A DNA stretch of 50,276 bases from a virus (IMGVR_UViG_3300036786_000189:1-50276), one strand, 5' to 3'; shown: positions 32,390 to 43,390, numbered from the stretch's first letter. Made by a program: numbers and translations. Notes: generated by a model from the sequence alone, not told the origin.

Positions 32390-32601
32390 CGCCCCTCGCG
32401 ATCTGCCGCGTCACAGAGCCCGCGCGCTTGCCATGCAGCCCATCCGGCGCGCGCTGTCGCCAACACGTAGTCGCCGCCACGCGAGCGCGTGAGCAGCGCT
32501 ATGGCCTCCTCGCGGCGCAATGCGCGCGTCACCCAAGCCTCGAAGCGTAGCCGCTCGATCTCGGTCGGTGACACGGCGTTGAGCGGCACGACGGTAGCCA
32601 T
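32386..32601 (-). CDS. Hypothetical protein (71 aa)
   Basis: Coupled to both neighbours; RFEAW...AWQAR pattern seen in small phage proteins. Confidence 0.6.
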   Translation of the reverse strand: MATVVPLNAVSPTEIERLRFEAWVTRALRREEAIALLTRSRGGDYVLATARAGWAAWQARGLCDAADREGR

Positions 32602-33470
32602 CAGGTCCCCACGTTGTTCGCCGGACGATACAAAGCCCGCGGCGCGCCCTCGCCGTTCAGGACGCGCAGATACTTGTCGGTTTCGCAGAGGATGTTCGGC
32701 ACGTCGGAGAAATCCATCTCGACGCCCGTCTCCTGGCGGATGGTCTCATAGAGCGTGCGCAGTTCGGCGAGTGCCCGCCATTGGGGCAGCGCGAAGTCGG
32801 TGGCGCGTCCGGCGATGCGGTTGAGGCCGCGCACCGTGCCTGGTCCTGCCGCTGCCCAGGTTTCCACATCGTCGGCGCCGCGCAACAATGCGGTGAAGCG
32901 CATGTCCACCACGACCTGATACGCCATGAATGCGCCCCAGCCCTGATACTTCGACAGAGCTATGTGCGTGTCGCGCAGCGTCGCCGCGCGGACCGAGCCA
33001 TCGAGCATCGCCCCGATCCGCAGCCGGTCGCGCCACGGCTCGCCCAAGACGGTTTTGACCACATAATCGATCTTCGACGCCCCCTTCGTCGCCGGAGCGT
33101 TGATCGTATAGGCGCCGGTAAAGACCTTCTCGCCGCGCGCCTGGCGCATCGCTAAAATTTCGCAAAGGCGTGGCAGCACGAATTGTGGATCGCTGGGCAG
33201 TCCGGCGATGATTTCTTGAAGCGTATCCGGCCAGTTGATCCAGCGACCTATCGCCAGCATGAACCATAGATTCGGCAGACCGGCGAAGCGCTCGCGGATG
33301 TTGCGCCGAATCCAGACCGTCACGCGGTCGTCCTCGCGCCGCACATTGCAGAAGCGGTACTTGGCGAGGATCGGATCGTCGGTCCACGGCATGGGCGCGC
33401 CGCTTTCCTTGCGGATACGCATAGCCTCGCGCTCGCGGACCCAATGTCGTAGGGCCTCGGCTGCGATCAT
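32601..33470 (-). CDS. 5-hmdU DNA kinase helical-domain / aGPT-Pplase1-like protein, stand-alone (289 aa)
   Basis: ERE.MR.RK..G...PWTDDPIL.KYRFCNVRREDDR, FTGAY, GAFMAYQVVVD, GPGT.RGL and LCE.DKY motifs; no P-loop. Confidence 0.82.
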   Translation of the reverse strand: MIAAEALRHWVREREAMRIRKESGAPMPWTDDPILAKYRFCNVRREDDRVTVWIRRNIRERFAGLPNLWFMLAIGRWINWPDTLQEIIAGLPSDPQFVLPRLCEILAMRQARGEKVFTGAYTINAPATKGASKIDYVVKTVLGEPWRDRLRIGAMLDGSVRAATLRDTHIALSKYQGWGAFMAYQVVVDMRFTALLRGADDVETWAAAGPGTVRGLNRIAGRATDFALPQWRALAELRTLYETIRQETGVEMDFSDVPNILCETDKYLRVLNGEGAPRALYRPANNVGT

Positions 33471-34360
33471 GCCGCGTCACTCCTTCCCATCGGCCAGGTC
33501 AGCCCGGCGAGCTTCTCGACGCCGCCGCTCCACAGCGGCACCTTGGTCTCGTACTCCGGAGGCGGCGTGACGCTCGCGGTGACGGCCGCGTAGACCGCCA
33601 CGACGCTGTCCACGCTGCGGCCCACCTTCGGGCCGAGGACCAGCGAGCGCTTCACGCCTTCCATCAGCCCGCGCAACAGCGCCGGCGACGCGCCCGCGGT
33701 CAGTTCCGTCAACAGGTCCACGTCCTCGTCCGGAAGGTCGAAGGGCGCGGCATAGCGCTTGATGATGGCGAAGCGTTCTTCGTCGCCCGGCAGGTCTATC
33801 GGGATCTGCATGTCGAAGCGCCGCCACAGCGCCGGGTCGAGGAAGTCGTGCCTGTTCGTGGCGGCGAGCCCGATGCCCTCGAATTGCTCGATGCGCCGCA
33901 GCAGCACGTTGAGCGAGTTCGCCCGCTCGACGCTCGCGCCCTGGTCGTTCATCCGCCTGCCGCCGATCGCGTCGACCTCGTCGAAGAACATCACGACCTT
34001 GCCCTCGGTCTCGTCCATCGCCCGGAACAGCTTGTCGATGTTCTGCCCGGTCGCGCCGAGATAGGCCGCGATCAGGCTCTCCGAACGCACACAGGCGAGC
34101 GGGAAGCCGAGCCGCGCGGCGAAGTGGTGCGCGAACGTGGTCTTGCCGCAGCCCGGTGGGCCGTAGAGCAGCGCCAGATGGCGCGCCTTGAGCCCCGCGG
34201 CCTTCAGCTCCTTCTTGAGCCTGAGTTCGCTCATCCACTCGAACAGCGCCGCGCGCACGGCAGGCGCGAGGATCGGTTCCTCGCATTCCTCCGGCAGCAT
34301 GATGTCGGCGAAGGGCGAGAGGTGACGCTTCACCTTGTCGTACTCGGCGTCCTTGCTCAT
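33467..34360 (-). CDS. AAA+ ATPase (297 aa)
   Basis: GPPGCGKT, FFDEVD and ATNR..FLDPALWRRF motifs. Confidence 0.93.
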   Translation of the reverse strand: MSKDAEYDKVKRHLSPFADIMLPEECEEPILAPAVRAALFEWMSELRLKKELKAAGLKARHLALLYGPPGCGKTTFAHHFAARLGFPLACVRSESLIAAYLGATGQNIDKLFRAMDETEGKVVMFFDEVDAIGGRRMNDQGASVERANSLNVLLRRIEQFEGIGLAATNRHDFLDPALWRRFDMQIPIDLPGDEERFAIIKRYAAPFDLPDEDVDLLTELTAGASPALLRGLMEGVKRSLVLGPKVGRSVDSVVAVYAAVTASVTPPPEYETKVPLWSGGVEKLAGLTWPMGRSDAA

Positions 34361-34980
34361 GGCGCGCCATCGCCATCGGGCTTGCCGTCGCCTTTGCCGT
34401 CCTCGTCATCGGGCTTTTTCTTTTCCTTGCGGCGCCAGGCCTTCGGCAATTCCATGCCGTCCGTGCCCGTCTCCGCGCACCAGCCCTCGTCCCAGGCAGC
34501 GCGGCGCGGATCGTTCGCGGTGTAGGGATTGTCGAACACCCGCTTGCCGTCCCGCGCGGCCTGCGCGCCGGCGTCGCGCGCCTTGGCGATTTCTTCCGGG
34601 CCTAGCGCGTCCGGCTTCTTTTCGGGCGCCCCCCCCCGTGCCTGCTCGTCACCGTCCGATTCCGGCTTGTCGTCCTCGCCGGACAGGCGCTTGCGGGCAT
34701 CCTCGCCGAGCGGCGTGCCGTGCAGCATGCCGATGGAGGCGCGGTACATCTGGTCGAGCGCCTGGCGCTCGCGAAGCGTCTGCTCGTCCTCCTTGCGGTC
34801 GCGGACAATGCCCTTGATGACCTTCACGTTGAAGCCGCGGCTGCGCGCCTGCTCGTATTCCTCCGTGATCTGCTCGGCGATTTCCTTCTTCTTGATTTCG
34901 AGCAGCTCGACGCGCTCGATCACGCCCAGCAGCTCGTTGCCGATGCTGCTGGTGTTCTTCGCGGGCTTGCGGATTGCCAT
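34357..34980 (-). CDS. GapR/DUF2312-like DNA-binding protein with Rmf-like C-terminal extension (207 aa)
   Basis: IERVELLE.KKKEIAEQI...Y..ARSRGFNVK.I..IV..RK; C-terminal G.QAARDG...NPY...W.EGW. Confidence 0.8.
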   Translation of the reverse strand: MAIRKPAKNTSSIGNELLGVIERVELLEIKKKEIAEQITEEYEQARSRGFNVKVIKGIVRDRKEDEQTLRERQALDQMYRASIGMLHGTPLGEDARKRLSGEDDKPESDGDEQARGGAPEKKPDALGPEEIAKARDAGAQAARDGKRVFDNPYTANDPRRAAWDEGWCAETGTDGMELPKAWRRKEKKKPDDEDGKGDGKPDGDGAP

Positions 34981-34981
34981 G

Positions 34982-35566
34982 TCAGCCCTCCGCCGTTTCG
35001 GCGCGGCTGAAGCCCACGACGATGCCCTTCTCGTCATCGACCTGGCCGTCGAGGAAGTGCTGGCCGTCCGCGCACGCCACATAGAACCCGGCATGGTCGT
35101 CGCCCTGCACGAGCGCGACCTCGGCGTCGTACTCGACGGTTACGACGGTGCATTCCTTCAGGCAGGTGAACGCCTCGTCGGCGATGAGACGGTCGCCTGC
35201 TTTGAGGTCTTGGATTTTGACAGGCGTGGCGGCGCGGTTTCCGGTGACACCATCGAAGAGCTTGTCCAGCGCACCGCTCTTGGCGTCTTCCTCGATCTGG
35301 CGATCCCAAGCATCCGACTCGGCGGACGTCAGTTCATGATCTTCCGCGCGGCGGAAGCCAACGACGGGAAGGAAGCGATGCGGCTTGCCGGTGAGATAGT
35401 GGCGGCCCAATGCGCATTGCACGAACGGCTCCGCGTCCGTCGCCATCAATTGGCGTTCGACCTCGACTGTGACGACTTCTCCGGGCTGGATGCAGTCGTA
35501 GCCGCCATCGTCTTGGTGTGTCAGGCGGTCTCCAGCCTTCAACTCGTGCGCATATAACGTGGTCAT
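34982..35566 (-). CDS. Hypothetical protein with a tandem duplicated beta domain (194 aa)
   Basis: Two copies of LKAGDRL...C...VVTVE...V.C..G.H.L.G...VVGF.RAE. Confidence 0.75.
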   Translation of the reverse strand: MTTLYAHELKAGDRLTHQDDGGYDCIQPGEVVTVEVERQLMATDAEPFVQCALGRHYLTGKPHRFLPVVGFRRAEDHELTSAESDAWDRQIEEDAKSGALDKLFDGVTGNRAATPVKIQDLKAGDRLIADEAFTCLKECTVVTVEYDAEVALVQGDDHAGFYVACADGQHFLDGQVDDEKGIVVGFSRAETAEG

Positions 35567-38172
35567 GCCGCTTCCTCCTTGGGGTCGGACTGTGGGTCGA
35601 TGAAGTCGAACAGCGAAGGCATCGCCATTTCGCGGGCGGCGGCTTCGCAATAGACGGCGCCGTCGCGCCAATAGGCGGTGGACAGCTCGATGCCGATGCC
35701 CTGGCGGCGCGCCTTCAGCGCGCGATACGGGACCGTCATCAGCCCGCCGAAGGGGTCGAGAACGGTCTCGCCCGGCATGGTGAACTGCGCGATCGCGCGG
35801 TCCACGATGTCGAATTGCAGCGGGCAGAGATGCATCTCCTTGCCCTTGGCGTATTGCGCGCCGTTGAGGGTGCGCATGCGCGTGACATCGCTCCATACGT
35901 CGTCGTGCCAGCTCGCGGGCGGCAGGAGCATGAAGGTCGGCGGCAATTGCCCGGCCGCTTCTAGGGCCTCGGCAATCGCGACATGGTTCTCGAAGTCGTA
36001 GACGCTCTCCGCGCTGTACTTGCGGAACGCCTGATAGATCACGTCGGCCTTGAGCCCGACCAGCTCTTCGCCCGTGAGCAGCCGGTCGCCGCTGGAGCGC
36101 TGGAAGCCGTGCGCGTCCACCTGCCAGCGGGCGCGGCTGTAGCCGCCCTCGTTCTGCCAGCCATCGCGCGTGTGCAGCTTCTTCGCCTTGACCACCGGCA
36201 CGTCGGCATAGCCGTTCGACGCATCGCTGGGCGGCTTGCGGAACAGCAGGAGATATTCCGGCATGCCCGCGCCTTGCCGCGAACCGTCCTTGCATTGCTC
36301 GGTCCAGCCCAGGCGATAGGTCTGGTTGTTCTCGCGCACCACGTCGGTCGTGATCGTCTTGCGCGCGAGGAAGGCGAAGCCGTGGCGGCGGAAATGCGCG
36401 ACCGTGTCGTCGGAGAACGGGCTCACCGTCTGGAAGCCCAGCCCGGTCATGCCGCCGGGCACGATGCGGTCCTTGACATGGATCGCCGCCACGCGGCCCG
36501 GCTGCAGAACGCGGAAAAGCTGCGGCGTCAGATAGTCCATCTGCCGGAAGAAGTGCTTGTCGTCGTCGGTGTGGCCGAAGTCGTTGAACGAGGGCGTGTA
36601 CTCGTACTGCGTCGAGAACGGGATCGAGGTGAGGATCAGATGCGCGCTGTTGTCGGGGAGATTCGACACTTCTTCGACGCAGTCGTTGTTGATCGCCCGC
36701 CAGCCCGGCCCCGAAACCTCCGCGCGCGCGACGCCGAACGAGCGCTGGAGCGTGCCGCACATCGCCTCGTGGCTAAGCCCGTACTCGCGGATGATCCTCG
36801 ACATCGTCTCGGCCTGTTCCTCGTGCCGCGCCCACTTGGCTTCGAGGTTGCGGCGCGTCTCGCGCTCGGCCTCGGAATAGATCAGGTCGAGCCGCACCGT
36901 GAAGCGCTGGCCGAACCGTTGCAGACGATGCACGGCCTGGATGAAGTCGTGGAACTTGTGGCCGATGCCGAGGAACACATGCCAGTGGCAGTGCATCTGG
37001 AAATTGCAGCCTGCGCCGGACATGGAGGGCTTGGTCGCCAGCTCGGCGAAGCGGCCGTGCTTGAAGCCGAGCGCCGCCTGCTCGTTCTTCTCCAGATCTT
37101 GTCCGCCGAAGATCGAGACGACGCCGGGCACGGCGCGCTCGATCGCGTCGCGCTCGGCTTCGAGGTCGTGCCACAGGATGCGATGCTCGCCCGGTCCCTC
37201 GGCCCGGATGGCGAGCATCTTGGCGACGCGCGCGCCCAGGCTCTCGCGCTTCTCCTTGGCGGCATCGACCACGCCGAAGGCCGTGTTCTTGAACATGCGG
37301 CCCTGGCCGTCGCGCTCGCTGCCCGCTTCGCGGTGATCGCTCGGCACCTCGTGCCAGCGGATGTCGAGCGCCGGCATGTCGTAGCCGTCGTCGGAGTAGC
37401 CGAGGTCGGATGGGCGCCGGACGAACAGCGCCCAGCTCGCGACCCACATCCAGAACTCGCGCTCCTTGTGGGGATGGATGGTCAGCGCGTCGGCATGCTC
37501 GCTGTCGCGCTTGAAGAACCGCGTCTTGGCCTGCCCGACATCCATCACGCCGAGGAAGGCGGCATAGGCCAAAAGCTCGATGTACTCGTTGGGGTCGGGC
37601 GTAGCCGTCGCCACGAAGCGGAAGCGCACGCCGTCCGTCTTGACGCCGCCCGTCCGGTCGTCGCCGGCGAACAGGCGCATGAACTCGCGGAAGGTCTTGG
37701 AGCCGCCGAAGCCGCGCAGGCACGCCGCCTCGTCCAGCGACACGAAGCCGAACACGGTCGGGTCGATCTTGCCTTCGCGCACGCTCTCGTAATTGGTGAT
37801 GTTGATGGCGCCGGGGTCCATCTCGTCGGTGCGGCGGATGAATTTGAGCCGCACCGCGAAGGCGCCGGTGAAGCGCGCCGCGGCTTCCTCGAAGAACTCC
37901 TGACGCACGCCGAGCGGGATGCAGATCAGCGCCGCGACCTTCTCCTTGACCATGGCCAGGCGTGCCAGTTCGATCTGCGCCGAGGTCTTGTGCAGCCCGA
38001 ACGACGCGAAGATCGCCCGCCTGCCGCCAGCCGCCGCCCACGGCACGATGGCCTCGCGCACGAAGTCCTTGAGCGCCGGGTTCACCTCGTGCGGCTCGAC
38101 GGTGAAGCCATGCGCGCCCGCGAGCCTGATCTTGCCCTTGAGGAAGTCGATATAGGTCGCGGGCTCGGTCAT
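35563..38172 (-). CDS. SNF2-like helicase fused to an amino-DNA methyltransferase (869 aa)
   Basis: GLHKT, DEAA, TATP and QAVHR..RFGQ helicase motifs; SIPF, HLCPLQ and DPFGGLMT MTase motifs. Confidence 0.9.
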   Translation of the reverse strand: MTEPATYIDFLKGKIRLAGAHGFTVEPHEVNPALKDFVREAIVPWAAAGGRRAIFASFGLHKTSAQIELARLAMVKEKVAALICIPLGVRQEFFEEAAARFTGAFAVRLKFIRRTDEMDPGAINITNYESVREGKIDPTVFGFVSLDEAACLRGFGGSKTFREFMRLFAGDDRTGGVKTDGVRFRFVATATPDPNEYIELLAYAAFLGVMDVGQAKTRFFKRDSEHADALTIHPHKEREFWMWVASWALFVRRPSDLGYSDDGYDMPALDIRWHEVPSDHREAGSERDGQGRMFKNTAFGVVDAAKEKRESLGARVAKMLAIRAEGPGEHRILWHDLEAERDAIERAVPGVVSIFGGQDLEKNEQAALGFKHGRFAELATKPSMSGAGCNFQMHCHWHVFLGIGHKFHDFIQAVHRLQRFGQRFTVRLDLIYSEAERETRRNLEAKWARHEEQAETMSRIIREYGLSHEAMCGTLQRSFGVARAEVSGPGWRAINNDCVEEVSNLPDNSAHLILTSIPFSTQYEYTPSFNDFGHTDDDKHFFRQMDYLTPQLFRVLQPGRVAAIHVKDRIVPGGMTGLGFQTVSPFSDDTVAHFRRHGFAFLARKTITTDVVRENNQTYRLGWTEQCKDGSRQGAGMPEYLLLFRKPPSDASNGYADVPVVKAKKLHTRDGWQNEGGYSRARWQVDAHGFQRSSGDRLLTGEELVGLKADVIYQAFRKYSAESVYDFENHVAIAEALEAAGQLPPTFMLLPPASWHDDVWSDVTRMRTLNGAQYAKGKEMHLCPLQFDIVDRAIAQFTMPGETVLDPFGGLMTVPYRALKARRQGIGIELSTAYWRDGAVYCEAAAREMAMPSLFDFIDPQSDPKEEAA

Positions 38173-38474
38173 TCGCCAACCGCCTGCTTGATCTTCGCGA
38201 GGTTGCAGACGACGAAGCCTTCGTAGCGCAGTCGGCCAAGCACCCAAGCCGCGTTCGCCAGCACGTTCTCGCGCATAGCCGCGGTGTAAGCCGCATGAAC
38301 GAGCGATGCGTCCAGCGTGCAGTCACACACCGCCAGTTCATGCTCAAAAAGAGCGACGGCAACCGCGCGCAAGGCTGCAGGCGACGGCCAAGATCGCATA
38401 TCGCGCAGCAACGGCTCTTTCGTGATCGCCTTGCGGCACTGCTCGTCTGTGGCTTGCAGCTCGTCGGGCGTCAT
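38169..38474 (-). CDS. Hypothetical protein (101 aa)
   Basis: ATGA coupling on both sides. Confidence 0.55.
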   Translation of the reverse strand: MTPDELQATDEQCRKAITKEPLLRDMRSWPSPAALRAVAVALFEHELAVCDCTLDASLVHAAYTAAMRENVLANAAWVLGRLRYEGFVVCNLAKIKQAVGE

Positions 38475-38785
38475 GCGGCGCGCACCGCGAACAGATCGAG
38501 GAAGATGCCCTGGCTCGCCTGATGGTTGCGAAGGCAATGCTGGCAGAGGAACGCCGGCGCCTGGTTCAGGATCGTTCGCGTGAGCGCGATCCGAACGATG
38601 GAGAGGCGCTGAACTTCACCGTCAGCATTGGCGCACCAGGCGTCGATGCCCAGACGCGGCCACGCGACGCCGCCGCGATCCTTGTTGACCGGAAGCGCCA
38701 GCATGAACTCGCCGTTGCTGGCGCGACCGCCGAGCGCGTGATTGCGGACCCCGCACACAGCGCAGCGTGTTTTGTCCACGCTCAT
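38471..38785 (-). CDS. Degenerate HNH-like Zn-binding protein (104 aa)
   Basis: RCAVCG and LCQHC pairs retained; central H/N catalytic pattern absent. Confidence 0.55.
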   Translation of the reverse strand: MSVDKTRCAVCGVRNHALGGRASNGEFMLALPVNKDRGGVAWPRLGIDAWCANADGEVQRLSIVRIALTRTILNQAPAFLCQHCLRNHQASQGIFLDLFAVRAA

Positions 38786-39480
38786 GCTCCGGACGCCGGC
38801 ACGCGCGCGAGGCACTCAATGAGGCCGTCTGCGAGGCGCTTGATGGCGAAACTCTTCTTAATTTTTAGAGCATCGGCATCGGCATCGGCATCGGCATCGG
38901 CATCGGCATAGGCATAGGCATAGGCATAGGCATAGGCATAGGCATAGGCATCGGCATCGGCATAGGCATCGGCATAGGCATCGGCATCGGCATAGGCATA
39001 ACTTTTCTTCAAAGCCGTGTACCACTCGTCCCGCGCGACGGTTTCACCAGCGAGCGCGCGGCGATGAAGCGCCTGTACCGCGAGATGAGACGCGGTGTCT
39101 GCCTTGCGCAAGGTCGCGACCTCGATCCGCAACGGCATCACGAAATTGGCGCGCCAATCATGCACCACCGAGAACGGCACCTTCCCGTCGAGCCGCGCAA
39201 GTTCGGCGTAAAACGCAGCGCCCCAAGTTTTCGCGTCGTCGAATTCCTGGGTGTCGAAAAGCCACGGCACCATCTGCGCGAGCCAGCGCGGCATGATCTG
39301 CGCCGGGCAAGCACTGGCCGAATTGACATCCGGGCCGATGACCGCGAGCGCGCAAGCGAGATGGCGGCCGTCTTCCTCGGCGTGCCACTTGCTTTGAACA
39401 AGGCGCCCGTCTTGAAGGGCCGAGTTGTAGCGGTCCAACGCCTGTGCTGCGGTGGTCGCAGTTGTGATCGTCGCGTCCAT
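38782..39480 (-). CDS. Hypothetical protein with an internal (Tyr/Asp)-Ala tandem repeat (232 aa)
   Basis: GGAGG RBS; globular N-terminus, repeat, then short helical C-terminus; frame preserved through the repeat. Confidence 0.8.
   Translation of the reverse strand: MDATITTATTAAQALDRYNSALQDGRLVQSKWHAEEDGRHLACALAVIGPDVNSASACPAQIMPRWLAQMVPWLFDTQEFDDAKTWGAAFYAELARLDGKVPFSVVHDWRANFVMPLRIEVATLRKADTASHLAVQALHRRALAGETVARDEWYTALKKSYAYADADAYADAYADADAYAYAYAYAYAYAYADADADADADADALKIKKSFAIKRLADGLIECLARVPASGA
38869..39000. repeat. Hexanucleotide tandem repeat, 22 units of two types (minus strand TATGCC / GATGCC)
   Basis: Read directly: 11 YA and 11 DA units, last unit GATGCT. Confidence 0.97.
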
Positions 39481-39529
39481 GGTCAAGTCCTCCGGTTGGA
39501 TGCTTCGGTGAAAGGGATGGGGCGCGTGG

Positions 39530-40021
39530 TCATGCCGCCGCCGCGAGTTGGAGCGGCGCCGGCATTTGGTGCGGCAGCAGCTGGTAGGCCAGCAGCTTTT
39601 TCTTCTTCGTCTCGCCAACGAGACGAAACCCGGCCTTCCAGAAGCAGAAGCCCTTGATCCGCTCGCCGCGCACCAGCACGCCGGGCACTTGCTTGGGGTC
39701 CACGAAGGTGACGCAGCCGAGCGGCGGCACGTCGTAGAGCGTCTGCATGATCGCCAGCGCCTCGCGGATCATGTCGGATGCGAGCGGCCCGGCGTTTTCG
39801 TTGCGAAAGATCGACGTGATCCACGCACCCAGCCAGGCATGATGCACATACTCGGCCTTGGGATAGCTCAAGCCGAACACCGCGCGCTTGTTCGTCGCGA
39901 CCAGGACCCGGCACGAGCCCGCCGGCATGAACTGCGGCGAGCCAACCTTCTGGCGCGAGTAGTGCCTATCGGCGAGCGCACGACCGTCCGGATCAGCGCG
40001 ATGGGCGAGCCTCCAAATCAT
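39530..40021 (-). CDS. Mom-like GNAT-fold protein (163 aa)
   Basis: RHYS, FRNE, VTFVD and GFCF.KAGF..VG.T pattern parallels Mom-family motifs. Confidence 0.6.
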   Translation of the reverse strand: MIWRLAHRADPDGRALADRHYSRQKVGSPQFMPAGSCRVLVATNKRAVFGLSYPKAEYVHHAWLGAWITSIFRNENAGPLASDMIREALAIMQTLYDVPPLGCVTFVDPKQVPGVLVRGERIKGFCFWKAGFRLVGETKKKKLLAYQLLPHQMPAPLQLAAAA

Positions 40022-40491
40022 GGCAAGACCTCGCGAAAGACGATCCCAGCTTCGACCAGCAGGTCTTTAGCCTCGGCCAAATCGGCATGCCATTTGGAGA
40101 AACCCGCTTTCTGCGGATACGACACGATCTCTCGAACGCCGGACTGGATGATTTCAACCGTGCATCGCACACAGGGCGCGCCGCCCCACACTTGGCCGCT
40201 CGCATCGGTCGCTGCGAGGTAGAGTACACAGTCCTTGGTACTGACCCCGGCCCGGGCCGCAGCGAGGATGGCATTCATTTCCGCGTGAACAATCAGCCGG
40301 AGCTTGGTCTCTCTATCGTCGAGACGATTCGATGTGCACGCGACCCCCTCCGGAAAACAGTTGTGCCCGATGGCGACAACGCTACTGGCAGCATCAACGA
40401 GCAGCGCGCCCACTTTGGTCGATGGGTCTGGAGAGGCGCCAGCGAAACGATGTGCAAGAGCCAGGTAGTCGCGGTCGGCTTGCTCGCTCAT
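40018..40491 (-). CDS. dCMP deaminase family protein (157 aa)
   Basis: SPDPSTKVGA, HAEMNAI, PCVRC and IIQSG motifs. Confidence 0.92.
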   Translation of the reverse strand: MSEQADRDYLALAHRFAGASPDPSTKVGALLVDAASSVVAIGHNCFPEGVACTSNRLDDRETKLRLIVHAEMNAILAAARAGVSTKDCVLYLAATDASGQVWGGAPCVRCTVEIIQSGVREIVSYPQKAGFSKWHADLAEAKDLLVEAGIVFREVLP

Positions 40492-41798
40492 GCCGCCCTC
40501 CGCAATTGCGCGTCGATACGTTCGCCAATCCAGCGCACGGCCGTGGTCGCCATGGAGTTGCCGAGCGCCTTGTAGCGCGGGCCGTCAGCGGCGCACCGCA
40601 CCAACTCGTCATCGCCGGCGTCCGGATAGGCCGAGAGAAAGTAATCACGCATCTCGTCCATCTCCCGCGACCAGTTGCGCTTGCGCGTCGGGATCAGCGT
40701 GAAATCGTCCGGGAAGCCTTGGAGCCGTTCGCACTCGCGCGGCGTGAGGCGGCGCACCTTCGCTTCCGCAATGTAACTGCGCGATGATCCACCACTCGCG
40801 GCTCGCAGGTTGGCTGTGTCGTGCGGGCCCTCGAACGCCGCGCCACCATCTCGACCTCTCAGGTCGTATGCGACCGCTACTTGGCCGCCAGCATTCTGGT
40901 GGCTGTCCTTGCGTCCCATCGCGCGCAGCGGCGGCGATATTTTCCCGACTCCAAAGCCGTTTTGGCCGCTGGCCTTGCAATCGAACGCCACGACATGCGG
41001 GGCACCTGTTGTCAGGCTATAGGTGGTGCCGTCCTCCAAAATTCCGAAGCCAGGTGGTCTGGTGCGAAAGCCTCCCGAACTATCGGCGCTCGGCGTGATT
41101 GAGACCCCGGAGCGCGCCACCGCATCGGCGTGAATACAAAGAGGCACGATGGGTATGCCGCGACCCGTCCCGTCCTCGGACGCATCAAAACCCTCGGCGC
41201 GCAGCGTGTGCGCGATCAACGTTTCGCTTTCGTAGTCTTGCCTACCCATGCCCCCCCCCATTGAGGCAGTGGGAGGCTTCGCGCGTGACGAGACCGCCGT
41301 CGCAATCGGAGTCCGTACCGAGTCCGCCACCGCCTGAAGCGCGCGCAGCAATTGTTGGGGCAATGTCTTTCCGCGCTTCGCGGCGCGGCGGAGAATTCCC
41401 GCGCAGGCCAAGGCGCTCAAAAAGTATCGCGGCGGGATCGGCCGCGTCTCTAAAACAGATGACAGCGAACACACGCTCGCGTCGTTGGGCCAGGCCGAAG
41501 TATTGAGCGTCGAGAACCCGCCATGCCGCCCGTGCCCTCGGCCCCTCAGCCAGACCTTCGCTGGGCCACCGGCACGATTGCCAGCCATAGGTTCGATGGA
41601 CGTTGTATGACCGATCGTCGAAGTGAGGCAGCGGACCCCAGATGGCATCGGGCGGGACCAAGGGATCATCGGCCCCGACAAATCCGCCCAGGAAACATCC
41701 AAAGGCGTTGTCGCCCGTGGTGAGGACGCCGGGGACGTTCTCCCAAACGACGATGAGGCCGGACTTTCCTTCTCGTTCCCGAACATGGTCAATTGCAT
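40488..41798 (-). CDS. C5 DNA methyltransferase second chain: overlapping-frame peptide fused to variable region and motifs IX-X (436 aa)
   Basis: Starts inside the first chain in another frame; CSLSSVLE...RYFLS..AC.GILRRA peptide; C-terminal RRLTPRECERLQGFPD and RYKALGNS. Confidence 0.75.
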   Translation of the reverse strand: MQLTMFGNEKESPASSSFGRTSPASSPRATTPLDVSWADLSGPMIPWSRPMPSGVRCLTSTIGHTTSIEPMAGNRAGGPAKVWLRGRGHGRHGGFSTLNTSAWPNDASVCSLSSVLETRPIPPRYFLSALACAGILRRAAKRGKTLPQQLLRALQAVADSVRTPIATAVSSRAKPPTASMGGGMGRQDYESETLIAHTLRAEGFDASEDGTGRGIPIVPLCIHADAVARSGVSITPSADSSGGFRTRPPGFGILEDGTTYSLTTGAPHVVAFDCKASGQNGFGVGKISPPLRAMGRKDSHQNAGGQVAVAYDLRGRDGGAAFEGPHDTANLRAASGGSSRSYIAEAKVRRLTPRECERLQGFPDDFTLIPTRKRNWSREMDEMRDYFLSAYPDAGDDELVRCAADGPRYKALGNSMATTAVRWIGERIDAQLRRAA

Positions 41799-42144
41799 GG
41801 GCGATCCTGACGAATGTGAGTGCGAGGTTGCTGCGCGCGTCCGATAAAGAGCCGCGCAATCCGGCGAGCGAGAACCCTTGGCAGGGCGTGCCTGCGATCA
41901 GCACGTCGGGCATCTCGATGCCGAAGCGCTTCAGGTGACGCACGCGCATGGCCGCCATGTCGCCCCACAGCGGAACGGTGCCGGCCGCGCGACCAATACG
42001 CAGATCTCGCGCGGCGTGCCGATACTTCAGCACCGCGATGGGGAAGTCCTCGATCTCTGAATAGAACGCGGGCTCCCAGCCAAGCGGCATGAACGCGATG
42101 CTTGCCGCTTCGATGCCGGAGCAGAACGATCCGAACGTGGTCAT
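41242..42144 (-). CDS. C5 DNA methyltransferase first chain, motifs I-VIII (300 aa), stops just after a G9 tract
   Basis: FCSGIEA, SEI, GTPCQGFS, ENVPG and QRRERVF motifs; ends NGGGHG*. Confidence 0.88.
   Translation of the reverse strand: MTTFGSFCSGIEAASIAFMPLGWEPAFYSEIEDFPIAVLKYRHAARDLRIGRAAGTVPLWGDMAAMRVRHLKRFGIEMPDVLIAGTPCQGFSLAGLRGSLSDARSNLALTFVRIAHAIDHVREREGKSGLIVVWENVPGVLTTGDNAFGCFLGGFVGADDPLVPPDAIWGPLPHFDDRSYNVHRTYGWQSCRWPSEGLAEGPRARAAWRVLDAQYFGLAQRRERVFAVICFRDAADPAAILFERLGLRGNSPPRREARKDIAPTIAARASGGGGLGTDSDCDGGLVTREASHCLNGGGHG
41251..41259 (-). repeat. G9 homopolymer at the frame junction of the C5 methyltransferase
   Basis: Nine C on the plus strand; removing one base joins the first chain to motifs IX-X. 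Confidence 0.9.
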
Positions 42145-42488
42145 GCCGCGCGCTCCCCGTCGTCGAGGATCGCGGCGATCATGTCTTCTTCCGCGGCGAT
42201 GGTGAGCAGGCGCCGCGCCAGTCCCTTCACGTCGACTTGGCGGCGCGAGGCTTCGCGGGAGAGCAGCGTAAGGATGTCCGGCTCGACATAGACGAGCTGC
42301 CCGCGTGGCACGCCTTGCAGCGGCGTGCGGTCGAACGGCGGGATGGCCTTGCCGCTGGCGCGCGCGGCTTTGATCACCGCGTAAATCTCGTACATGAACA
42401 CGCGCTCGGCGAGCATGCCCTGGATCAGGCACGGCCGCGTGCCCTGCTCGGCCAGCGTGACGATGCGGGTGCGGGTCGCGTCGATCAT
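42141..42488 (-). CDS. Hypothetical protein, probably DNA-binding (115 aa)
   Basis: ATGA coupling; C-terminal L.REASRR...LARRLL...AILDD pattern. Confidence 0.65.
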   Translation of the reverse strand: MIDATRTRIVTLAEQGTRPCLIQGMLAERVFMYEIYAVIKAARASGKAIPPFDRTPLQGVPRGQLVYVEPDILTLLSREASRRQVDVKGLARRLLTIAAEEDMIAAILDDGERAA

Positions 42489-43390
42489 GCCGCTGCCCTT
42501 TCCGCTGGCTTTGCAGGGCCGCGCACGGTCGGGATGGGGCGCACACGCACCTTGGCGCGCAGCAAGCCGTCGAGATGCTCGGCGAACTTGCGAGAGTCCG
42601 GGCAGAGAATTTCGCTGACTTCCTTGGGGAGGCTGCAGTCGTGACGGCAGACGCGCCACTCGAAAGCGCGATGCTCGACCAGCAGCGCGCCGAACGTCTC
42701 CGGCGCATCGAATGGCATGCACTCGGTTTCGATCAGATGCGCGGGCCACTCGCTCGCCTTCGCGCGGGCGCGGGAGATATGCGCATCGAGCCACGCCTTG
42801 CCGCTGGTGTAGAGAACGAGCCGCCCTTGGGAGTCCGGCTGCAAGTGACCGACCGCGAGCGTGTGCCCGGTGAAGGACAGCGGCCTTCCGCCGTCGAGCG
42901 GCAGCGCGATCAGGTCGCAGACCTGGTCGAGGAAGTCCGCATCGGCGAAGCGCCAGCACGAAAGCGTATCGGCGATGCACGCATCGGCGACCGGAAGGAT
43001 CAGCGCGGGCGTTCCATCCTCGCCGGGATTTTCGGGTGTGCCGGTGAGCGCGTGGCGCCAGCGCGGCGCGGCGTCGGTAATCTCGCTCTCGTCGTCCCAG
43101 GCGAAACGCGACTTCACCTTGCGCGGCTTGTCATGCGGCTCGCGCACGATGCGCGCCATGACCACGCCCATCTCGAGCAAGACGAGCTGATCCACATTCG
43201 CGCTCTCGCCGCTGCCGATCACACTCGGCAAGCCGCAGGCGCCGAACATCGCGCCAAGATCGAACGTCTCGATCAGCGAGACATACTCACCGCGCGCGCG
43301 ACGCCCGCCGCGACCACGCGGCAACGCATCACCGCCCGCGCCATCGACGCGCGCCGTAATCGCCGCGATCATTTCGGCGAAGCCGGTCAT
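42485..43390 (-). CDS. Hypothetical protein, possible divergent primase-like/replication protein (301 aa)
   Basis: ALILPV...DLIAL...TG...VG...LVLYT...WL pattern; near the start of the cro operon. Confidence 0.5.
   Translation of the reverse strand: MTGFAEMIAAITARVDGAGGDALPRGRGGRRARGEYVSLIETFDLGAMFGACGLPSVIGSGESANVDQLVLLEMGVVMARIVREPHDKPRKVKSRFAWDDESEITDAAPRWRHALTGTPENPGEDGTPALILPVADACIADTLSCWRFADADFLDQVCDLIALPLDGGRPLSFTGHTLAVGHLQPDSQGRLVLYTSGKAWLDAHISRARAKASEWPAHLIETECMPFDAPETFGALLVEHRAFEWRVCRHDCSLPKEVSEILCPDSRKFAEHLDGLLRAKVRVRPIPTVRGPAKPAERAAA

Follow-up and report, generated by a model that had tools for sequence, protein, structure and literature searches.

The window analysed here, a 50,276-nt stretch of viral DNA, carries a gene that by its sequence belongs to a widespread family of phage C5-methyltransferases (P1 Dmt-like), in which a conserved gene, beta, is nested in the +1 frame of the methyltransferase gene itself, alpha. 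In this copy a tract of nine G residues ends alpha early, and the distal part of the enzyme is read in the frame of beta. With a probability of about one half, we favour the reading that a replication slip from G8 to G9 moved the recognition modules and motifs IX-X from alpha to beta, and that the resulting pair still assembles with one of the modules broken.

C5 motifs I-X, with the catalytic PC, ENV and QxRxR, are all present and are distributed across two chains (Table 1), and the Pfam family PF00145 matches both chain 1 (E 3.9e-17) and residues 339-373 of chain 2 (E 1.9e-7). By motif content the gene is a C5 DNA methyltransferase (PF00145), with methylation itself predicted. Chain 1 also matches phrog_116 (E 5.7e-49), and its AlphaFold2 model (mean pLDDT 78, below 50 for residues 261-300) has M.HhaI as top Foldseek match, with the fold of a C5 catalytic domain followed by a disordered tail. 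An earlier note on this DNA had described chain 1 as holding motifs I-VIII and stopping 9 nt past the G9 tract, and chain 2 as starting inside it in another frame, with an overlap of 557 nt, staying open through the tract and carrying the variable region and motifs IX-X; the ORF coordinates agree on each point. Its expectation for G8 was likewise reproduced in silico: alpha becomes a full-length protein of 551 aa (...CLNGGGMGRQDYESET...) and beta a protein of 193 aa ending in WVGKTTKAKR. At G7 or G10, motifs IX-X are carried by neither chain. The beta ATG sits 18 codons ahead of the alpha WENV, the commonest start position in relatives (64/131), and the ATG of the downstream deaminase gene overlaps the chain 2 stop (ATGA) in the G8 and G9 layouts alike.

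Table 1. Features of the methyltransferase locus and of neighbouring genes, in coordinates of the window.
Feature	Position	Strand	Remarks
Upstream 116-aa ORF	42141..42491	minus	no known family; stop overlaps chain 1 ATG
Chain 1 (alpha N-half), 300 aa	42144-41242	minus	ends SHCLNGGGHG*
Motif I, chain 1	42135-42106	minus	
Motif IV GTPCQ, chain 1	41892-41878	minus	
AGGA ahead of beta ATG (41798)	41805..41808	minus	short, putative ribosome-binding-like site
Chain 2, 436 aa	41798-40488	minus	+1 frame; beta region, then tract, then variable region and motifs IX-X
Motif VI ENV, chain 1	41742-41734	minus	
Conserved beta core (CSLSSVLE...YFLS...CAGILRRA..RGK.LP..L..AL)	41325..41516	minus	dual-coding over alpha motifs VII-VIII
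Motif VIII QRRER, chain 1	41487-41473	minus	followed by one variable-region module and a tail (predicted disordered)
Conserved variable-region module HCLN.GG / MGRQDYESET	41220..41271	minus	split across both chains by the extra G
G9 tract	41251-41259	minus	C9 on the given strand; one G above the length that keeps alpha in frame
Motif IX (RRLTPRECERLQGFPDDF)	40701..40754	minus	
Motif X region (DGPRYKALGNSM...WIGERI)	40515..40586	minus	
Downstream dCMP-deaminase-family gene	40018..40491	minus	PF00383, E 4.8e-16
163-aa phrog_24928 protein	39530-40021		
Long protein with N6/N4 methylase domain	35563-38247		
5-hmdU kinase helical domain	32601-33470		

At the site of the tract, relatives mostly encode HCLNAGGMGRQDYETET, a conserved module, so that the G9 allele retains motifs I-X yet cuts this module in two. 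The split module is likely a DNA-recognition (TL-loop-like) repeat, a role that we assume from its resemblance to the HhaI TL/loop segment, to which the last repeat alone was aligned. It is present in just 9 of the 74 full-length relatives found with chain 1 and absent from the other 65.

The surrounding DNA is likely a prophage, with integrase, repressor, terminase, portal, capsid and tail genes, and the methyltransferase gene belongs to its early region; the contig measures 137 kb, in a genome of 3.39 Mb and 65% GC. A cluster of DNA-modification genes extends across 32601-40491 and 1-1047 of the window, with a further methyltransferase at the left end (1-1047); the 163-aa protein of Table 1 is presumably Mom-like. 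The ORF at 38782-39618 has a low-complexity AYAD/AYAY repeat close to its C-terminus.

Conservation of the nested beta frame

A first survey returned at least 160 viral loci in addition to the window, with duplicates within the set. Among the matches listed, 150 of 161 loci have a full-length alpha with a short nested +1 beta, three are in three ORFs, two (the window included) have beta fused to motifs IX-X and six are incomplete; the nested +1 ORF was found in all 155 complete loci listed. A second survey of 80 loci, partly on the same contigs as the first, gave 78 loci with full alpha and short beta, none in three ORFs, one fused and one incomplete. The G8 layout, full alpha with short beta, is the family norm. 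Fused loci are rare (2/155 listed, window included, and 1/79), and with a full-length alpha in 150/155 complete relatives among the matches listed and in 78/79, a split of the M.AquI kind is not fixed in the lineage.

The earlier note had looked to homologues for conservation of both frames, which is what we found. Over alpha motifs VII-VIII, the +1 frame contains no stop in 137 sequences; in the same 137 sequences, conservation over the beta core is 0.82 in the +1 frame vs 0.69 in alpha, and third-position entropy drops to 0.56 over the beta core, vs 1.39-1.59 at motifs I, IV and IX. By these sequence measures, the beta frame is under selection as a conserved alternative-frame ORF of alpha. 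At least 6251 protein clusters match beta, none of them named, and the beta region of chain 2 had no match in Pfam, PHROGs, NCBIfam or PDB sequences. In phage P1 itself, the +1 frame of dmt contains an intact but unannotated beta ORF (L331:1185-3449, NC_005856.1). The chain 2 N-terminal region also proved related to the beta chain of M.EcoHK31I, to which the earlier note had pointed, and in the same register, a result that comes from about 40 residues translated by eye from published primer tables. The primer-derived stretch RGEYWMQNTVEHP...CTLSQVLET matches the family core and lies over alpha WRVLDA...QRRRR in the same +1 register.

Some further occurrences are worth recording. Plasmid records that match the beta core number 532, most of them P1-like. 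An actinobacterial homolog on a Euzebya plasmid (L332:1-2129) has a divergent nested beta, and an insert at its catalytic PC motif that we take to be an intein with an endonuclease domain. In a search for close relatives of the prophage, four of 300 genomes of the family have a beta homolog (5 loci), none beta-fused and none with a G/C run of 8 or more.

Tract length and slippage among relatives

The tract is absent in most relatives, in which GCN GGY GGY codons form no run. In a tally of 152 loci listed (window included, after removal of three same-contig duplicates and six incomplete loci), G runs of up to 7 were in frame in 141/141 cases, and those of 8 or more were shifted in 5/11, all by +1. 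Pattern scans for tract-bearing copies (166 loci; 30 metagenome loci with short flanks; 67 family members, 54 distinct) gave 34 distinct family loci in frame, 18 in +1 and 2 in the third frame. As the scan pattern needs G7, -1 alleles of G7 are invisible to it; for in-frame lengths of 8 or more, there were 21 loci in frame, 13 in +1 and 0-2 in -1 (bias p 0.0002-0.007). This +1 bias matches the insertion bias of C. jejuni G8 and G9 tracts, which for G8 is 11:1 to 24:1 in the available text of PMC3401435. We also found G7/G8 and G8/G9 allele pairs with common flanks (L162 and L279 are 97.6% identical), and one +1 allele common to three separate metagenome assemblies, with others of the same flanks in frame. 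A tract scan of a genome collection gave 24 loci, two of them in the methyltransferase family.

Purified phages vary as well. In cluster J mycobacteriophages, 17 distinct purified genomes match the homologous site, and the nine that were fetched carry G6 (1), G8 (4), G9 (3) or G10 (1); the other genomes look G9 (7) and G10 (1), as judged from alignment span alone. By tract type, Dove and Omega are G8, Dallas and Porcelain G9 and NihilNomen G10. The proposal that the poly-G tract is a phase-variable site is upheld to the extent that the tract is hypervariable in relatives (18/54 in +1; G6-G10 in isolates): in these relatives of the window phage, even closely related copies differ in tract length and, with it, in reading frame. 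Most probably, the window G9 is genuine and derived, having arisen from G8 by a +1 slip.

The variable region has 16 times the density of runs of 8 or more that is seen in the flanks (9.9 vs 0.63 per 100 kb). Set against a codon-shuffle null in 135 sequences, such runs are as frequent as expected (4 vs 4.0), and those of 6 or more are depleted (11 vs 31.9). Second lesions are frequent in tract-bearing relatives (other repeats, and a nonsense codon in L179), which fits weak selection. The variable regions of nine relatives (L166, L175, L228, L254, L292, L312, L313, L316, L344) hold more repeats, of the kinds (GA)n, (ACAG)n, several G8-G11 runs and a C9 run, with frame changes nearby; in L312, two frame shifts cancel each other.

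The earlier note had named a homopolymer sequencing error as the main alternative, the gene then being a plain G8 member of the family, and this we consider unlikely. A Logan contig of sequencing run X1 has G9 at depth 17.9 with no indel; X1 is the single run with the locus and may itself be the source, and its contigs, of which about 71% was read, hide minority alleles. G/C runs of 8 or more are rare, the 3.39-Mb genome containing 12, of which five are 9 long and two of these five lie in the window. The prophage's other G9 run (34629-34637, between the GapR-like and RMF-like domains of the ORF at 34357-35094) is in frame, which makes a systematic assembly error unlikely. Three other long runs, checked as candidates for a genome-wide homopolymer error, were intergenic and were set aside (C18:10956, C53:49839, C46:82807); those at G000 C18:10956 and C53:49839 sit in a shared palindromic repeat (CCTCCCCCTCGCGGGGAGGT-like arms), apparently a host repeat family. 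An error is further opposed by the +1 allele common to three metagenome assemblies and by the length differences among isolated phages. As a terminase control, 14 loci were fetched, six of them terminases with a G8-G9 run: five are in frame, one is -1 and none is +1. The one out-of-frame gene means that tract errors or mutations do exist in collections, and the comparison of +1 states (0/5 distinct terminase loci vs 13/34 family loci) gives p=0.15 on this small control. Less probable still is a DNA fixed at G9 from which full-length alpha is made by transcriptional slippage or ribosomal frameshifting. Homopolymer runs can serve as recoding sites and one base separates G9 from full-length alpha, but the tract is missing in most relatives and, where it exists, varies in length at the DNA level, unlike a conserved recoding signal.

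Possible activity of the G9 pair

Motifs I-VIII on one chain and the distal variable region with motifs IX-X on the other make up the M.AquI-type pattern, in layout. According to the available text of PMC3404938, M.AquI is cut in the variable region and fragments of M.SssI and M.HhaI cut after motif VIII complement each other; in layout, the G9 cut, between motif VIII and the distal variable region, is placed as in M.AquI and near the optimum for M.SssI/M.HhaI complementation. In the accessible part of PMC2836561, the beta chain of M.EcoHK31I carries motif IX and works with C-terminal fusions. We modelled the complex from three pieces, with the beta core and the C-terminal part of the 436-aa chain 2 as separate pieces, and the beta core scored 0.77 against both halves, the best of three controls reaching 0.45. 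The mark for this score is reached by 116/157 solved complexes and 2/215 mismatched pairs, a calibration set unlike the present job with its three pieces and own alignments. Runs share at least 66% of contacts and partner pLDDT is at least 73, with the closest modelled contacts made by beta LSSVLE/YFL with motif IX and by residue 219 at motif VIII. By this prediction the beta core lies between motifs VIII and IX and bridges the two halves; the passing score may reflect likeness to one-chain C5 structures. Beta probably stands in for the linker found after motif VIII in C5 enzymes made as one chain. From the model and these analogies, the G9 pair probably still assembles.

The strongest hint that G9 is active comes from sequence comparisons in cluster J (L431-L439, e.g. 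MN062701.1:67989-69108, AY129338.1:67900-69204). Here the methylase is in three ORFs whatever the tract length: beta stops just ahead of the tract, and alpha is not made whole by any length. With G8, alpha ends in one module and with G9 in another, and each of these modules is conserved in the frame in which it is so read. Purifying selection acts on the separate IX-X ORF (pS 0.52-0.83, pN 0.04-0.08). Dallas and Omega, one pair of sub-lineages related to the window gene, differ at 9 positions in the module directly after the tract, none of which alters an amino acid in the G8 frame; in the module after that they differ at 10, all of them third positions, and it is only in the G9 frame that all of these are silent. 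The simplest reading of these patterns would be that both tract states have been translated and kept by selection, with a different terminal module of alpha in each; alternatively, both lineages share frameshifts acquired once the modules had diverged. The cluster J gene is annotated as two separate methylase genes, with beta mostly unannotated, and in Schatzie, Thibault and Constella an HNH gene is inserted in the methylase gene.

Beta is fused to the C-terminal half in 4 of the 17 +1 loci in which it was located, and among the 34 in-frame loci it extends as far as the tract in 7 (p=1.0); in the other 13 of the 17 +1 alleles, beta is not joined to the C-terminal half and motifs IX-X were identified on no initiated chain. 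As fusions are not enriched among +1 alleles, fusion depends on where beta happens to stop, and it occurs in the window because this beta has no stop ahead of the tract. Among the top 120 long beta homologs, 102 are beta-IX-X fusion proteins, mostly singletons whose junctions differ, a pattern expected of sporadic frameshifts or assembly errors; a crude test found Gly- or Pro-run signatures near the junction in 70 of the 102. The P0213 lineage, a candidate for a fixed, tract-free fused lineage, turned out to be fused at a C9 run. At the protein level, the Pseudomonas proteins P0137, P0142, P0244 and P0246 share junctions, as do P0232 and P0234. The latter two are beta fusions with an intact module, 90-92% identical over the beta part to L424, an isolate prophage in which a one-base shift upstream is made good by a G7 tract, so that alpha is full-length but has one module scrambled. 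Either state of this pair could be ancestral, and L424 may reflect selection for a one-piece alpha.

The earlier note had proposed that one-base slippage toggles between two arrangements that each retain all motifs, rather than simply switching the enzyme on and off. The frames and the retention of motifs I-X stand. The equivalence of the two states does not: G8 is the norm, fusion is not enriched, long tracts are as frequent as codon shuffling predicts, and G9 breaks one variable-region module. The beta fusion looks like a by-product that is probably tolerated, rather than a demonstrated designed toggle.

In the assembling-pair reading that we prefer, slippage from G8 to G9 would end alpha after motif VIII and join the variable region and motifs IX-X to the nested beta, which would supply the linker after motif VIII and clamp the catalytic half to motif IX. 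The two chains are predicted to form an enzyme that would methylate DNA, one of its recognition modules likely being lost, and the slip would be reversible; translation initiated at beta would, as the ATGA overlap suggests, keep the downstream deaminase gene coupled at G9. By analogy with T2 agt (available text of PMC12633550), a plausible purpose would be to balance the shelter that methylation gives from type II restriction against the risk from methyl-directed nucleases. Nearly as likely as the assembling pair, in our estimate, is a real slip that leaves the enzyme OFF or nearly dead at G9, in an ON/OFF contingency locus or a gene decaying at a mutational hotspot, with a functionless fusion. 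There is precedent for phage contingency loci that turn DNA modification ON and OFF (T2 agt, same source), and such a state would fit the 13 of 17 +1 alleles with motifs IX-X on no initiated chain identified, the lack of fusion enrichment, the frequent second lesions and the cut through a strongly conserved module, whereas complementation of C5 enzymes cut at such a position (PMC3404938, in part), the predicted contacts of beta with both halves, and purifying selection on the cluster J IX-X ORF and on the module readable only in the G9 frame all argue for an active pair. We hold as a more doubtful extension that poly-G tracts in this methyltransferase family are selected switches of architecture and specificity, in which each length would be active with other recognition modules and the beta clamp would permit cuts anywhere in the variable region; cluster J, with G8 and G9 ending alpha in different conserved modules, would be its clearest case.

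If G9 is active, a frameshift of the kind annotated as a pseudogene would be a re-partition of the enzyme, and phages could change their methylation pattern through slips of a single base, a point relevant to restriction escape. For thousands of phage methyltransferases, among them P1 Dmt, function may depend on a second chain, and cloning or codon optimisation would destroy the nested beta.

Comparison with known systems

Each element of this arrangement has a precedent: a nested beta is known from one E. coli enzyme, and split C5 enzymes, phase variation at poly-G tracts and contingency loci in phages are known as well. A paper combining nested beta, split C5 enzyme and poly-G was not found in open-licence PMC and bioRxiv literature, and the available text of PMC5537653, PMC6536676, PMC3925955, PMC12707154 and PMC3706429 describes neither a nested beta nor a tract in such phage genes. 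M.EcoHK31I, an alpha/beta C5 methyltransferase recognising YGGCCR (PMC2836561 and PMC3404938, in part), resembles the window gene in having a homologous beta nested in the other frame of alpha in the same +1 register; its beta N-terminus is dispensable and that of the window family is poorly conserved. It differs in that its beta lies wholly inside alpha and carries motif IX, with motif X on alpha, and in being part of a restriction system, whereas in the window gene motifs IX and X travel together (on alpha at G8, on beta at G9) in an orphan prophage enzyme whose long variable region is modular and which has a G tract.

M.AquI (CYCGRG), compared by layout from the published text available, has a two-chain cut like that of the window G9 allele, and M.BspRI is also among the C5 enzymes with complementing fragments (PMC3404938, in part). 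For M.AquI, M.SssI, M.HhaI and M.BspRI, the available text of PMC3404938 describes no overlapping beta region; in the window, a slippery tract determines where the enzyme is divided, and the start of chain 2 lies within chain 1. The window gene thus departs from both the motif partition of M.EcoHK31I and the fixed split of M.AquI. The C5 domain of P1 Dmt and the phrog_116 orphan phage methyltransferases belong to the same family as the window gene, P1 Dmt differing in that its full-length alpha is fused to an adenine methylase and lacks the split module and the tract; Paracoccus prophage C5 enzymes of relaxed specificity (PMC3925955, in part) may be relatives. With the poly-G phase variation of C. 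jejuni (PMC3401435) and of methyltransferases (PMC12707154), and with T2 agt (PMC12633550), as far as the available texts go, the window gene shares a coding G8/G9 tract, length variation, insertion bias and DNA modification as the target. Those poly-G examples are mostly ON/OFF, and cj0031 fuses to cj0032 on slippage (PMC3401435, available text); the window gene differs from the known poly-G loci in that an overlapping partner gene catches the shifted half.
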